Numbered from the stretch's first letter, positions 7,839 through 14,087 are shown. The stretch is 64,000 nucleotides of DNA from Bacteroidales bacterium (GCA_007135095.1 SLJO01000170.1:465-64464), one strand, 5' to 3'. Translations and numbers: made by a program. Notes: generated by a model from the sequence alone, not told the origin.

Positions 7839-7913
7839 CGATAATGCGGCATACGTACATAAAAAATGGCTGTATATTTACATGCGCCCGCTAACAGTTT
7901 AACTGATGTTCCG

Positions 7914-8810
7914 ATGCATTGGCATACCGCTATCACTGAGTTCAAGATATATTTAAAACTGGAAAGGTCCTTATCTGCCAATTCTGTTGATGCCTATCTG
8001 CAGGATATCTTAAAGCTGCAGAGTTATACCTCTGCTCTTGGCAGTCCGCCCGAACCTGACAAAATTGAAATTTCCCATCTCCGGGGATTCCTTGAGTGGC
8101 TCAACGGTTTTTATCTTAACCCCGTCACCCAGTCCCGGATAGTATCGGGTATAAGAGCCTTTTTCCGGTTCATGCTTTTAAACGACATTATCGTTCATGA
8201 CCCCTCGGCTCTGCTGGAAATGCCAAAAGCACGAAGGAAACTGCCGGAGGTGCTTTCAGTGGATGAAGTCGATATGATACTTGCCGCCATAGATTTAAGC
8301 ACCCCGCAGGGACAAAGGAACAAGGCGATGATTGAAACTTTGTATAGCGGGGGACTAAGGGTTTCTGAACTGGTGAATTTATGCATCAGTGATATATACC
8401 GCAGCGAGGGATTTTTAAAAATTACCGGCAAAGGAGAAAAGCAGCGGCTCGTACCTGTAGGCACGCGTGCGCTCAGGGAAATTGAACTTTATCTGCCCGA
8501 CCGGAACAGGCTGCCGGCAGTCAGGGGGCATGAAGACATATTGTTCCTTAACCGGCGGGGGAAACCGCTGACCCGTGTAATGGTTTTTACCATCGTAAGG
8601 CAGCTTGCCATGAAGGCATCCATCAACAAAACCATCAGTCCCCACACCTTCAGGCATTCCTTTGCCACCCACCTGGTTGAGGGTGGTGCAGACCTGCGGG
8701 CAGTCCAGGAAATGCTGGGGCATGAATCCATCATAACTACGGAGATCTATACCCATATGGACAGCGATTACCTTCGGGAGGCGATCAACAGTTTTCATCC
8801 GAGATCCTGA
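7914..8810 (+). CDS. xerD: Tyrosine recombinase XerD-like
   Basis: The N-terminal SAM-like domain reads [24 protein letters not shown]. The catalytic domain carries R...[11 protein letters not shown]...[13 protein letters not shown] (the R-H-R-Y set). The ATG at 7914 fits XerD N-termini better than the ATG at 7866. Confidence 0.8.
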
Positions 8811-11127
8811 ACCTGGCAGGTATAAAAATATTCCTGAGGTTATGCCGTGTTTCCTGGTCAAAAGCATCCGGTGATAAACCCTCTGATGCAACCGAACGGG
8901 CAAAGTCCGATGCCAGCAGGTGTCTGGGAATATCGTTCTCGCTCATAAACCCGGAGTTGCTGTCGGGTATTCCCATCCGTTTTTTAATAATATATTTCTT
9001 AAAGTCAAGTGTGGAGAAAAGGTCTTCAGGGGCTGCAATGTTTTTTGCCAGTATTAACCTGGAACCGGGCTCTGCGGGATCAAATCCCTTAAGGTTCAGT
9101 TGTAATTCACTGATAACTTCCCGGCTGTCCTGATTATCGAACAGGAGCACGGAAAAATCAAACCCCCATCCGATCATCAGGTTAACAAGTGTAGTGACCC
9201 CGGCAGGACCGTTTGCCGGCAGAAAATGAATATTTTCCCCGGGGTTCATCATTTTATAAAGTGATGAGAGGTAATAAAAACTGCTGATATCCTCAACAAT
9301 CACGTTGCCGGACTGCAGGGCAAGCTGCTGGCGGTTGAATCCGGCACCAAGCAGGGAACTAAGGGGAGATAGCGTATCTGAAGTTGCCGCATGCAGGTGG
9401 GATGCATCGTAGATTATTGTCTCGCTTTGCTCGTGGTTCTCCGTGCCCCTTTGCACGGCAAGCAGCCTGTAGAGCTTGTCATTATCAATCAGGTGCGGGG
9501 AATGAGTGGTATAAATTATCTGGATTTTCCCTTTTATATCTTCAAAAACCTTGAGTACATCCTCCTGGGCCCTGGCATGAAGACTTAGTCCCGGTTCATC
9601 AATGAGAAACACCCTTTCTGCATTTTCATTCTGGCGCGCAAAGGCTTTCAGCTCCAGGTAAAATGACAGGAACCATCTGACACCCCTGCTTCTTTGTTTG
9701 GGATAAAGCCTTTCATGCTCATCCTTTATCCAGAATTCCAGGTAGGGCTTGCCTTTTTTTTCAGGATTGGAAGTATCGTAATGTTCAAGCTCAAAATGAA
9801 TCCTGATTTTGTTTGTTTTTCCTATGTTCTGGCGCCAGTATTCCTGAAAATCAACCGTTACATCGTTATTGAGGTTTTCAATTTTTTGTTTCAGGATGCG
9901 GTTGTTTGTTTGTCTGAAAAACTGCGGATCCAGTCCGGCGATAATCAAAAAATTCTTCACTGCCTTGTATCCTTCAACCTTGTTGTTATTTTGAAAAATA
10001 TCTTCAAGATCGATGCGGTTCGGCAAAAGGCTGCTGAAATCCTGAAAAAATTCATGAGGGGGTATGCACTTGAAAAAAGCTTCTCCTGCCTCTTCGCGGG
10101 TATAAAGTTTATTGCGTGCATTGAACTCATCAACAGCCTCTTTTTCAGCCTCATTCAATGTTTTTCCCTCCAGGAGTTTTTTCACAAGCCTTGTGCTGAT
10201 TCCTGCCTTTTCCTTCAAAGATTCCATGTTGCGGCGTACCCTGATATAATTTTCCTTGGCTTCGAATAACTTAAGTTCGCCGGCCCTTGTTTCCTTCTCG
10301 CCCCTGAGAAAAGCCATGTTTGCCTGCACTTCCATTAGCTCTGTGTAGGCTTTGTCCAGTTCCGGTTTTGTGTTTTCCAGGTCTTTGACTGATGTAAGGC
10401 ATATATTGCCATGCTCACGAAAAATAGCCCTGTCATTAAGATTTTTCCTTAATTCTGCCAGGAGGGCCGATTCTTTTTGCAGCTTTCCGGTGATGCACTC
10501 AATTTGTTTTTCAACTGATCCTGTATCTTGTTTCAGGACTTCCTGTTTTGCAGGATCGGACGAACGCGTTGAAAGCTTTTTCAATTCTGCCTGCCTTCTG
10601 GTTATTTTTTCCAGCTCCCCGGCAAGCTCAGCTGTGCTTTCTTCAAGCCTGATAACATCCTGCCGGGTTTCTCCTGATTCTTCCAGCGCCTTGTATATAG
10701 CGGTCATTACTGTCTGCGTCATACCGAGTTCCTTTTTTTCGATCTCATCGAAAATTACCGATATCTCATCGCCTGATAAGGTAATCCGGCTGCTCATATC
10801 CGGCAACCATTCCCTGGTAAGTACCAGATTCTTTTCCTTTTGCATGACCGGCAGCATCCCGGCGGGCAAACGCCCGTTATCGATGAAATCAAATGATTCG
10901 TCTGAACCGGGCCTGTAAAGGCATGATACCTCCGGAAATGTCATATCGCTGCGCAATACATCCTCTGAGATTGTTCCTTCCCAGAAGCTGTAAAGGCCCT
11001 CCAGCACAGATGTTTTTCCCGATTCATTCTGACCTATCAGGGCAGTGATGTTATCGGAAGAAAGAGTGTTCCATCCTGAATCAACAATACTCCTGAAATT
11101 TTTAATTCTGAATTCTAGAAGCCTCAT
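8785..11127 (-). CDS. ABC/SMC-type ATPase with a long coiled-coil insertion and a C-terminal Toprim-like domain (OLD-family or fused PARIS-like architecture)
   Basis: It has Walker A GQNESGKT, a ~300-aa K/E/L-rich insertion, Walker B/D-loop [12 protein letters not shown] and H-loop YTTHSPH. The C-terminal ~200 aa read VIVED...[11 protein letters not shown]...LLFDNQDS...APEDLF, which resembles the Toprim Glu/DxD pattern. The Toprim assignment is by eye only. Confidence 0.7.
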
Positions 11128-11139
11128 TATTAGTATAAG

Positions 11140-11967
11140 TTAGGTAATTTTGAATCCCATGAGCAAAACATCATCAACCTGCTCATGCTTCCCCAGCCAG
11201 TTAATAAAAGTTTCCCTGAGGATATTGTGCTGTTCCTTCATATCCTTTTGATGGATGTCGATCAGTAGCTTTTTAAATGGTCTGTACTTGAATTTTTTTC
11301 CTGCCGGTCCGCCGAACTGGTCCGGAAAGCCGTCTGTAAACATATATATTACGTCATTTTTACTGATTTCAATATCACGGCTGGAAAAGGGTTCTTCACG
11401 CAGGGCATTGATACCAACAGGCATTTTGTCAGCTTTGATTTCGAGCAGAGCTTTATCCCTGACAATATAGACAGGGTTGTTAGCCCCGGCGAACTGCAGA
11501 TTAGTCATGTCATGGTTTATAATGCAAAGCGACAGATCCATGCCGTCCTTTGATTCATTGAATTCGCCGGTCTGATGGAGGGCTTTCATTACTTTTTCCC
11601 TTAACCTGTTAAGAATGTGCCCCGCCATGTCAGATGAACCGGTTTTTACAATTTCATTAAGAAATGAAATACCCAGGATGCTCATTAATGCGCCGGGAAT
11701 GCCGTGACCGGTGCAATCGGCCACTACTATATAGGTTTTCCGGTTTTTTTGTGTTATCCAGTAAAAATCGCCGCTTACAACTTGTTTAGGTACGAACAGT
11801 ATAAAATATTCACCCAGCAGCTTCTTCAAAAGCTGCCCTGAGGGAAGCAGTGCGCGTTGTATTAATTCTGCACACCGGACGCCTTCCATTATTTCCCTCT
11901 CGGTGGAATTCTCAGGATCAGGCATAAAGCTGCCTGATCGGGCATCAGAATCAGATGATTCCTGCAT
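11140..11967 (-). CDS. Stand-alone PP2C/SpoIIE-family serine phosphatase
   Basis: It carries the motifs SGDFYW, VVADCTGHGIPGALMS, MFTDGFPDQ and DDVLLMGF. Its stop lies 12 nt upstream of the ATPase start codon. Confidence 0.85.
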   Translation of the reverse strand: MQESSDSDARSGSFMPDPENSTEREIMEGVRCAELIQRALLPSGQLLKKLLGEYFILFVPKQVVSGDFYWITQKNRKTYIVVADCTGHGIPGALMSILGISFLNEIVKTGSSDMAGHILNRLREKVMKALHQTGEFNESKDGMDLSLCIINHDMTNLQFAGANNPVYIVRDKALLEIKADKMPVGINALREEPFSSRDIEISKNDVIYMFTDGFPDQFGGPAGKKFKYRPFKKLLIDIHQKDMKEQHNILRETFINWLGKHEQVDDVLLMGFKIT

Positions 11968-12254
11968 ATATGCTGGTTTCTTATTAAATTAAAATTAACC
12001 TTTCCGGAATCCGGCTGTTTATTGTGAAACGAACCATGCGTGATTTTGTTACAAACACAGGCAGAACCTGCCTTTTTGCCACGATGCAAAAAGACAAACC
12101 TGAAAAAATGGCTTTTTTCTTACCTTTAAAGACAAAATGTCGGTAGGAACCTGCAATTAAGGATTTGGTTAATTTTTTGAAGGGGGCATAATAAAATTTG
12201 GAAATGAGGGTTGTTTAGAATATTAATAATTTTAACAAATTAACACTGAAAAAA

Positions 12255-12935: not shown

Positions 12936-12999
12936 TGACCGCCTGGATATTGTTATGGAAATATGACTGAGTAGTAAATATCTTTAAAAATCTTTGGTT

Positions 13000-13410
13000 A
13001 TGGGATTCAAGGATTTTTACGGTATACTGAAAATAAAGCAGGATTCGGGCATTCGGGAGATTAAGGACGCCTATCGCAGGATGGTCAATCTTCATCATCC
13101 CGACAAGCATCCGGAAAGTAATACCGATACAGCACCTTTTGTTGAGATCCAGGAGGCTTATGATACATTAAAAGATCCTGAAAAAAGGAAAGAGTATGAC
13201 AGGTTATACGACAAGGAAATAAATAAAACCCGGGAGGAATCCCGGGGCTATAAAGAACCTTCAGATAGCTTTACCCGGTGGGACGATGATCCGGATAACC
13301 TTATTGATGAAATTTTCAGCCGTTTTTTTAGCCGGTTTCCCGGCAGGGGCGGGTCAGAAAAGAGATCGGGTGGCGGGCCGGACCATATTCACTATGATGA
13401 TCTTTTATAG
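13000..13410 (+). CDS. J-domain (DnaJ-like) protein with a disordered acidic/Gly-rich tail
   Basis: It has DFYGILKI...IKDAYRRMVNLHHPDKH (HPD tripeptide) and then EAYDTLKDPEKRKEYD. There is no zinc-finger or C-terminal DnaJ domain. Confidence 0.8.
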   Translation: MGFKDFYGILKIKQDSGIREIKDAYRRMVNLHHPDKHPESNTDTAPFVEIQEAYDTLKDPEKRKEYDRLYDKEINKTREESRGYKEPSDSFTRWDDDPDNLIDEIFSRFFSRFPGRGGSEKRSGGGPDHIHYDDLL

Positions 13411-13772: not shown

Positions 13773-14087
13773 ATGGTCATGCAAATAGATTTCAAACCCA
13801 ATGAAGTTGTCGTAAAAGCAGGTAATTCTGACCGACTTCACAATGGCATAAAAATTGATGGAAAGTTTATTGTAACAAACCAGCGTATATACTTTAAATG
13901 CCTGAACGGTAATGCCGGGAAGTATGATCTGGAAATAGTACCATCACAGATAAGTGAGGTGCATTTTTTCAACACCGGATTTTTAGCTCCCAACGGGCTG
14001 AACCTGATACTTAAGGATGGAGGAGAGTTTAAATTCAGGGTAAAACAGAGAAACTCCTTCGGAGAGCTTATAAACAGGATGTATTAG
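13773..14087 (+). CDS. Small hypothetical protein, possibly of GRAM/bacterial-PH-like fold
   Basis: The 104-aa ORF is followed by a strong terminator. The pattern KFIVTNQRIYFKC...ISEVHF is reminiscent of PH/GRAM-like domains. The fold call is weak. Confidence 0.45.
   Translation: MVMQIDFKPNEVVVKAGNSDRLHNGIKIDGKFIVTNQRIYFKCLNGNAGKYDLEIVPSQISEVHFFNTGFLAPNGLNLILKDGGEFKFRVKQRNSFGELINRMY

Follow-up and report, generated by a model that had tools for sequence, protein, structure and literature searches.

A SiaA-type PP2C phosphatase encoded beside a divergent OLD-family ATPase in Bacteroidales: a candidate signalling module

We analysed a 64,000-nucleotide (nt) stretch of DNA from a Bacteroidales bacterium (GCA_007135095.1, SLJO01000170.1:465-64464; the window, by which we mean the whole stretch). 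Its minus strand carries a gene for a stand-alone PP2C/SpoIIE phosphatase of 275 amino acids (aa), followed by a gene for a 780-aa protein in which an ABC ATPase is joined to a Toprim-like C-terminus. A first-pass annotation, made from the sequence alone, had proposed the two as a candidate defence-type module. We find that the genes are conserved as a pair in environmental Bacteroidales, that the larger protein is, by predicted fold and homology, a divergent OLD-family member with a decayed nuclease motif, and that a signalling role suits the pair better than nuclease-based defence. An open reading frame (ORF) map of the window placed both genes on the minus strand with the 12-nt gap between them, exactly as first drawn, and gave the following features.

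11968-12254, minus: intergenic region 5′ of the phosphatase gene, shared with a divergent zinc-peptidase gene (ORF map); presumed promoter region of the operon
11140-11967, minus: gene for the stand-alone SiaA-type PP2C/SpoIIE Ser/Thr phosphatase, 275 aa (ORF, Pfam SpoIIE)
11764-11778, 11701-11718, 11329-11337 and 11167-11178, minus: metal-binding Asp motifs of the phosphatase, SGDF (within the first interval), DCTGHG, TDG and VDDV, respectively
11128-11139, minus: 12-nt spacer from the phosphatase stop to the ATPase ATG, CTTATACTAATA
8785-11127, minus: gene for the predicted OLD-family ABC-ATPase/Toprim protein, 780 aa, stop codon included (ORF, AAA_15, AAA_21, Foldseek)
10774-11127, minus: N-terminal lobe of the ABC ATPase, residues 1-118, with Walker A GQNESGKT at 11011-11034
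10063-10773, minus: expanded all-helical, coiled-coil-like insertion, residues 119-355 (AlphaFold helices)
9448-10062, minus: C-terminal lobe of the ABC ATPase, residues 356-560 (ATPase motifs, PDB profile match)
9682-9696, 9589-9606 and 9499-9507, minus: motifs of the C-terminal lobe, signature-like QRSRG, Walker B LIDEPG and H-loop THS, respectively
9313-9447, minus: linker, residues 561-605 (low model confidence, conserved motifs)
8788-9312, minus: predicted OLD-type Toprim and helical domain, residues 606-780 (domain model, Pfam matches of relatives)
9289-9303, 9133-9141, 9022-9027 and 8998-9006, minus: Toprim sites VIVED (with the Glu), F663-D664-N665, E701-D702 and D708-F709-K710, respectively

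The short spacer implies that the phosphatase and ATPase genes are co-transcribed. A promoter and terminator scan gave chance-level matches only, with a sigma-70-type consensus that is not appropriate for Bacteroidota. The G+C content of the pair (0.44-0.47) is the same as that of its flanks.

The 275-aa protein matches Pfam SpoIIE (PF07228, E=2e-22), and its best relative of solved structure is the PP2C domain of SiaA (6K4E, E=8e-33, residues 22-273). It also matches the NCBIfam SiaA model at E=5e-50, through the C-terminal region of that model only and below the cut-off for a whole-protein equivalog. Residues D84, D212, D265 and D266 were invariant in 82 orthologues. By these comparisons the phosphatase belongs to the SiaA clade and is predicted to be catalytically intact. 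The motifs quoted in the first-pass annotation were all present, namely DCTGHG, TDG and VDDV in the phosphatase and VIVED, FDNQDS and PEDLF in the ATPase.

Full-length homologues of the 780-aa ATPase numbered more than 1500. Pfam recognizes its ATPase part (AAA_15, E=5e-22, residues 1-547, plus AAA_21), and in 43 homologues the Walker A motif G32-T39 was invariant, as were Q478-W485, D510, E511 and H542, which include Walker B and the H-loop. Since these ATPase motifs are intact, the protein probably still cycles ATP. A profile search of the PDB matched the C-terminal lobe to OLD (6P74, 8e-9) and to AriA. PADLOC v2.0.0 scored the ATPase best against its AriA, Old, PtuA and GajA models, the top match being AriA (PDLC02979, E=5e-23, residues 1-547), and all of these models cover the generic ATPase region. 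The phosphatase had no matching model in PADLOC v2.0.0.

An AlphaFold2 model of the whole ATPase, built on the 43-sequence alignment, had a mean predicted local distance difference test score (pLDDT) of 80.6. It bore out the coiled-coil-like insertion of some 300 residues noted in the first reading, predicting long helices within residues ~119-355 (120-188, 192-232, 234-271, 277-319 and 324-339, pLDDT near 90). In the model this insertion (119-355) is much larger than in OLD or GajA. Its sequence is poorly conserved, and in short relatives of ~600 aa the same region is shorter and of low complexity; the enlarged insertion sets the PP2C-linked long forms apart from them. The linker, where pLDDT is low, holds the invariant residues S568-E569-T570 and D584-T585-L586-S587-P588, a motif also present in short relatives that have no PP2C.

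Direct scans of the C-terminus were empty, so that its assignment to Toprim rests on fold comparison and transitive homology. Neither Pfam nor PADLOC gave a match at E<=10 for the last 231 aa, DUF4435/AriB included, and a family profile of the region retrieved no Toprim protein from PDB sequences; its sole match at E<0.01, to a telomerase-associated protein, was treated as chance. In the whole-protein model, residues 608-694 form a beta-alpha-beta-alpha-beta-alpha-beta unit followed by helices, and Foldseek returned GajA (8U7I) and Thermus OLD (6P74) among the best matches, over ~815-850 columns. As ABC heads (SMC, Rad50, PtuA) dominated this full-length search, with global TM-scores low owing to the coiled coil, we modelled the C-terminal domain separately (pLDDT 77.9). 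Its best PDB matches were the C-terminal Toprim domains of class 2 OLD proteins, 6NJW (E=1.7e-4) and 6NK8 (E=7.8e-4), both with probability 1.00 over 200 columns and TM-scores of 0.42-0.53, followed by 6P74. A profile of the domain yielded 889 matches among 1.84 billion representative proteins, many of them ~570-640 aa long and of the same overall architecture. Four distant relatives were tested on Pfam OLD-like_TOPRIM (PF20469): three reached the gathering score and one fell just below. Three of the four were scanned with PADLOC, and all three matched the Old model across the ATPase-Toprim junction. Structure and transitive homology thus indicate that the 780-aa protein is a divergent OLD-family member. 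The first-pass annotation had read the combination of ABC ATPase and Toprim as an OLD-family architecture, with which AAA_15, Foldseek and the domain model agree; for the C-terminus itself, profile scans were negative but structure prediction supported an OLD Toprim.

In OLD nucleases, the Toprim Glu and both aspartates of the DxD motif bind metal A, and a Glu that opens the helical domain binds metal B; a metal-A triple mutant of BpOLD lost cleavage of linear DNA and retained some nicking (PMC6755086). In HEC-04, the corresponding Glu and DxD triple mutant (E319A/D375A/D377A) is inactive in defence (Payne et al. 2024 preprint). Ungapped alignment of the window protein to relatives with canonical motifs identified E612 as the Toprim Glu and placed F663-D664-N665 at the DxD position. 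The fold and the Glu proposed from the first reading thus stand, but VLLFDNQDS does not carry a DxD, and by this alignment the motif is lost. We considered D664 and D667 as a substitute DxxD; this was ruled out, as D667 varies even inside the closest clade and many members have Gly at position 664.

The same decay runs through the family. Among 117 unique long proteins (~775 aa), the Toprim Glu is kept in ~75% (Lys in 22, Gln in 6) and the DxD in only ~23-25 (21%), with diverse replacements. The Glu is present in 30/30 short relatives and the DxD in 29/30, and both are present in each of two long forms without PP2C (L113 and L159). The DxD is therefore intact in 31 of the 32 relatives without PP2C; its loss in PP2C-linked proteins compared with the others gives Fisher p=5e-16 without phylogenetic correction, for sequences that are not phylogenetically independent. 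Elsewhere in the domain, E701-D702, D708-F709-K710, R717, N724 and D757 are invariant or nearly so in the ATPase family. By this pattern of residues, the domain is retained while its metal-A site is no longer under selection. Nuclease-site decay, the PP2C partner and the enlarged insertion go together.

We next consider how constant the pairing is. When each species was represented by a single genome, a scan turned up relatives in 523 species genomes; the best 80 loci of each scan were examined, and nearly all relatives came from metagenome-assembled genomes (MAGs). The best 80 of the 523 were all Bacteroidales, Bacteroidota or Chlorobiota MAGs. A PP2C gene lay directly upstream on the same strand in 83/83 reference-genome loci with upstream DNA, with spacers of 10-267 nt, mostly 10-100 nt. 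In a metagenome scan seeded with the short relatives, PP2C lay upstream of 44 of the 46 long forms that had upstream DNA and in none of 35 short-form flanks. Pairwise identities of ATPase and PP2C were strongly correlated (r=0.95). The adjacency seen in the window is thus conserved in other genomes and is far beyond chance. No third gene was conserved beside the pair in 84 loci, where a kinase, a STAS protein, a helicase and a reverse transcriptase were looked for. The two long forms (~775 aa) without a PP2C gene in the 4 kb upstream (L113, 3995-6328; L159, 4001-6319) retain a canonical motif, D-D-E or D-D-D; L113 also has the ‘LEE’ Glu motif of the short forms and may link the short and long forms as an intermediate. 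The short relatives have no conserved neighbour gene. Four of them (in L092, L094, L096 and L112) lie immediately downstream of a 644-aa DNA-methylase-like ORF (742-2676 in L092), so the short forms may belong to a restriction-modification or defence setting.

The surroundings of the pair are unlike a mobile defence island. In the window, it is flanked on one side by genes for a Xer-like recombinase and pyruvate kinase, and on the other by genes for a zinc peptidase, a DnaJ-domain protein and RlmN. Gene order in this block is kept throughout the closest clade, with identities of 54-67% for the ATPase, 74-79% for pyruvate kinase and 83-91% for the zinc peptidase. The Xer-like recombinase stays beside the pair in that clade at 67-79% identity; it therefore has the appearance of a housekeeping Xer and not of an island integrase. 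RlmN lies within ~6 kb even in a clade whose ATPase is only 44% identical. ATPase and RlmN divergence are correlated (r=0.59; Mantel 0/2000), with mean identities of 0.50 for the ATPase, 0.55 for PP2C and 0.60 for RlmN. Five further contexts, making six in all, contain metabolic or housekeeping genes only. No full-length relative was found in 50,697 phage records or in 72,556 plasmid records; the partial plasmid matches are short OLD-like genes from other phyla. This setting resembles the pattern from which a non-defence role of the archaeal OLD protein Cran1 was discovered (PMC12796447).

Several neighbours may be noted in their own right. The Xer-like tyrosine recombinase (Phage_integrase and SAM_1, 314 aa; 7866-8810, plus) is convergent with the ATPase gene, and the two genes share 26 nt (8785-8810) at the 3′ end of the latter. 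Between the zinc peptidase and RlmN lie genes for the 138-aa DnaJ-domain protein (12994-13410, plus) and for a 104-aa protein with no Pfam match on record (13773-14087, plus); both are kept in the syntenic clade (L001 and others). At 12 long-form loci, a convergent gene for a 459-aa RNase_T, GIY-YIG and UvrC_M protein lies just downstream of the ATPase (for example, L029, 5515-6684; L159, 6334-7713; L168, 10359-11738). In L167, SSB and thioredoxin genes occupy that position.

Links to partner-switch signalling came from relatives of the phosphatase. SiaA dephosphorylates SiaC at pT68 in a partner switch (PMC7647112). The nearest relatives of our phosphatase that are not stand-alone proteins are a receiver fusion (REC-SpoIIE, 53% identity) and a TPR fusion (TPR-SpoIIE, 57%); in such paralogues the same PP2C module is joined in cis to receiver or TPR sensor domains. 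Two of these fusion genes sit in operons with a SiaB-family kinase (NF038262, above cut-off) and SiaC (PF09345). The SiaABC-like Bacteroidales operon found in L165 (5001-8992) and L166 (3135-7148) comprises REC-SpoIIE, TPR-SpoIIE, a SiaB-family kinase (DUF6272) and SiaC, with divergent Cupin_5 and ADP-ribosylglycohydrolase genes on its 5′ side; two phosphatases for one partner switch are unusual.

The first-pass annotation had seen no kinase or obvious phospho-substrate gene near the pair, which is true within the 64-kb window; yet a sister clade has SiaC ~1 kb away. In that clade (Lys at the Toprim Glu and F-G-N at the DxD; hereafter K-D/F-G-N), a SiaC gene (PF09345, E=3e-30) lies ~1 kb 3′ of the ATPase in 14/21 loci, most of the other 7 having too little downstream DNA to show it. 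SiaB was found beside none of the pair loci searched. A sensor-PP2C gene of the Reg_prop/Y_Y_Y type lies directly upstream of the pair in at least 11 K-D/F-G-N loci. The arrangement is well seen in L144 (50-8913; L124, L132, L136, L155, L162 and L164 are similar), where the pair lies within a larger block in the order 1046-aa Reg_prop/Y_Y_Y-TM-SpoIIE, PP2C, ATPase, Peptidase_C26, convergent SiaC and TsaD, and the stop of the sensor-phosphatase gene overlaps the PP2C start.

Taken together, the loss of the DxD, the housekeeping flanks, the absence of full-length copies from the phage and plasmid collections and the membership of the SiaA clade agree better with a role in signalling than with defence by a nuclease. 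The simplest assumption is that the function for which the pair is conserved is performed by the ATPase and the phosphatase, and not by the nuclease. We favour the interpretation that an OLD-family protein has been repurposed in a conserved two-gene operon with a signalling or domesticated role, to which we assign a probability of about 0.45. In the paralogues the PP2C module is under the control of sensor domains in cis, and here its constant partner is an OLD-type ATPase; we therefore propose control by the ATPase in trans. The ATPase would serve as both sensor and regulator, interacting physically with the phosphatase. What it recognizes would most plausibly be a particular state of DNA or nucleoprotein, or else a foreign protein, if OLD, AriA and Rad50-like ATPases are a guide. 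The ATP cycle would then activate or release the phosphatase, whose substrate would be a switch protein of the SiaC type; the gene for this protein would lie elsewhere in the genome or, in one clade, next door, and its dephosphorylation would change a downstream response. The Toprim domain may persist for a structural role, for docking or for binding nucleic acid, and not for processive nuclease activity.

More specifically, and as a tentative proposal that we hold to be somewhat doubtful, an OLD nuclease may have been exapted in Bacteroidales into a nuclease-dead, ATP-driven sensor whose sole output is a SiaA-type phosphatase. Detection of aberrant DNA, a phage protein or replication stress would then feed a SiaC partner switch and change behaviour or physiology, instead of leading to destruction of nucleic acid.

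A number of observations weigh against a signalling role. The family is rooted in a defence family, and defence systems also occur outside islands. About one-fifth of the PP2C-linked family keeps a canonical Toprim site, so that the nuclease was probably still active in the ancestral pair. In the window protein, the putative metal-B residues E701/D702 remain, as do the conserved K710/R717, and, because BpOLD metal-A mutants still nick, residual nicking by it is possible. The motif statistics come from related, non-independent sequences, and the AlphaFold models are of moderate confidence only (pLDDT 78-81). Co-divergence with RlmN is only moderate, and a Chlorobiota MAG copy is as similar as many Bacteroidales copies, making some horizontal transfer of the pair likely. 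No SiaB or SiaC gene was found in the window by tblastn and hidden Markov model searches; the window has no SiaD gene or other substrate gene either, and most pairs have no SiaB, SiaC or other substrate gene beside them. The SiaC linkage comes from one clade only and hence counts as one evolutionary event.

The strongest competing explanation is true anti-phage or anti-plasmid defence by a further OLD class, in which the ATPase senses infection and PP2C is a toxic or regulatory effector. PP2C might, for instance, dephosphorylate host or phage proteins and so abort infection, with the Toprim nuclease as a dispensable second effector. Bacterial OLD classes 1-4 are all defensive (PMC10568477), defence systems usually take the form of a compact two-gene operon in which a sensor ATPase accompanies an enzyme, and the ATPase scores best against the PADLOC models of AriA, Old, PtuA and GajA. 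The short relatives occur on plasmids and beside the methylase-like ORF, and the occurrence of the family in only 523 reference species genomes would also suit defence. However, every context examined has housekeeping flanks, with synteny kept across the clade; the architecture is uniform, the pair diverges only slightly faster than RlmN (0.50 versus 0.60 mean identity), and the phage and plasmid collections searched hold no full-length copy. The phosphatase, moreover, matches no PADLOC model and has close paralogues among the ordinary signalling phosphatases of the SiaA type, and a non-defence OLD clade already exists (Cran1, PMC12796447). With flanks, synteny, partial co-divergence with RlmN and the phage and plasmid searches all pointing elsewhere, the defence-type label given at first loses ground, and we consider it possible but rather unlikely. 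Were it correct, the pair would represent an OLD class with a phosphatase effector, which is not described in searchable sources.

We think it unlikely that the pair is instead a housekeeping factor of DNA metabolism or the cell cycle, like Cran1 or Rad50/RecN, in which the ATPase-Toprim protein would work on the chromosome and PP2C would only tune it. There is a known example of an OLD clade that is restricted to one order, passed on vertically and involved in the cell cycle, the ATPase head with its long helical arm resembles SMC/Rad50 heads, and a Xer-like recombinase, SSB and the RNase_T/GIY-YIG/UvrC_M gene (12 loci) recur as neighbours. Yet most members, the window protein among them, have lost the metal-A site, whereas Cran1 has nickase activity. 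The family is also absent from most Bacteroidota, given its 523 species genomes, unlike an essential function. PP2C, which is always present and conserved to the same degree as the ATPase, seems to be central rather than accessory.

The first-pass annotation had also raised the phosphatase as a regulator, and PP2C might switch the nuclease on or off by dephosphorylating the ATPase-Toprim protein. Such an arrangement could be ancestral, given that ~21% of long forms keep both Glu and DxD, and the flexible linker offers invariant Ser/Thr residues (568-570 and 585-587). This linker motif was rejected as a PP2C-specific target, since it is equally conserved in relatives without PP2C. The DxD is gone in ~79% of orthologues, and the Glu is also replaced in ~25%, while PP2C stays intact; a regulator would not be expected to outlive its effector, and the model is hard to keep and, in our judgement, improbable. 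That the two genes are unrelated neighbours without a functional link is, for practical purposes, refuted by their adjacency in 127/129 informative loci with very different neighbourhoods, by spacers of 10-100 nt, by the correlated divergence (r=0.95) and by the absence of PP2C beside any short relative.

If the pair does signal, its ATPase would be the first bacterial OLD-family member to signal rather than cut, and its phosphatase the first PP2C known to be under the control of an ABC ATPase in trans, which would be a new way to regulate PP2C phosphatases. SiaC-type partner switches, by which Pseudomonas regulates aggregation and the formation of biofilms, would gain a new type of input, and the pair would show how defence components can be domesticated for signalling in bacteria, in parallel to archaeal Cran1. 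OLD proteins form a major and poorly understood branch of bacterial immunity, in which the cue of the ATPase and its relay to the effector are open questions. The lineage described here is a natural experiment in this respect, as the nuclease site has decayed repeatedly with ATPase and phosphatase under selection, making sensing and signalling separable from cutting.

The partners described for OLD classes 1-4 are none, a UvrD-like helicase, a retron reverse transcriptase and a split AriB (PMC10568477, PMC12796447); that of class 5 (Cran1) is a membrane protein, and clades U1-U10 are uncharacterized (PMC12796447). The searchable literature, which did not include the main ABC-ATPase classification and in which one preprint (Payne et al. 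2024) shows a PP2C-containing candidate system of unclear identity, yielded no OLD, PARIS or Gabija-type ATPase with a PP2C partner. Within this literature and the models of PADLOC v2.0.0, the pairing is thus a previously undescribed OLD-family arrangement, as the first reading had supposed.

The window protein shares with class 1 OLD (P2 Old; Thermus scotoductus, 6P74) and with the ~600-aa relatives the order of ABC ATPase, helical insertion, linker, Toprim and helical region, the ATPase motifs and an (I/L)ED...DFK segment that follows strand 4 of the Toprim domain; matches of the short relatives to its C-terminal profile have E values of 1e-28 to 1e-60. It differs from both in ~170 extra insertion residues, an obligate PP2C, the degenerate F-D-N, a stable chromosomal context and the lack of a direct Pfam Toprim match. 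Gabija (class 2 OLD) is alike in its two-gene operon and in full-length structure, GajA 8U7I being the best Foldseek match. However, no UvrD-like helicase adjoins the window ATPase, whose neighbours are PP2C and the Xer-like recombinase (and none is conserved in the 84 loci), and the class 2 metal ligands are not conserved in the window family. As to the retron-type OLD proteins (class 3), no reverse transcriptase ORF is conserved beside the pair, and NCBIfam retron-effector models scored far below their cut-offs. HEC-04 is likewise a fused ABC-ATPase-Toprim protein that has been compared structurally with BpOLD (6NK8), but it is a single gene inside Hma systems and its defence needs Glu and DxD (Payne et al. 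2024 preprint), whereas the window protein naturally lacks the DxD.

PARIS also uses an AAA_15-type ABC ATPase to scaffold or control a separate enzyme, and the logic of sensor ATPase and effector proposed here is PARIS-like. The partner in the window, however, is PP2C and not the DUF4435 Toprim tRNase AriB; the Toprim domain is fused, degenerate and without a DUF4435 match, and the AriA match covers the generic ATPase region only. Cran1 (class 5 OLD, Sulfolobales, PMC12796447) resembles the window family in evolutionary pattern only, being lineage-restricted, largely vertical, apparently non-defensive and accompanied by a conserved partner. It is an archaeal, essential and active nickase with a membrane-protein partner, whereas the window family is bacterial, mostly without DxD, and has a PP2C partner. 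Closest on the phosphatase side is SiaABCD of Pseudomonas aeruginosa (PMC7647112): the window PP2C is most similar to the SiaA phosphatase domain, and its Bacteroidales paralogues accompany a SiaB-family kinase and SiaC. SiaA, however, has its own membrane and HAMP sensor region, whereas the window phosphatase stands alone with an OLD-type ATPase as its partner.

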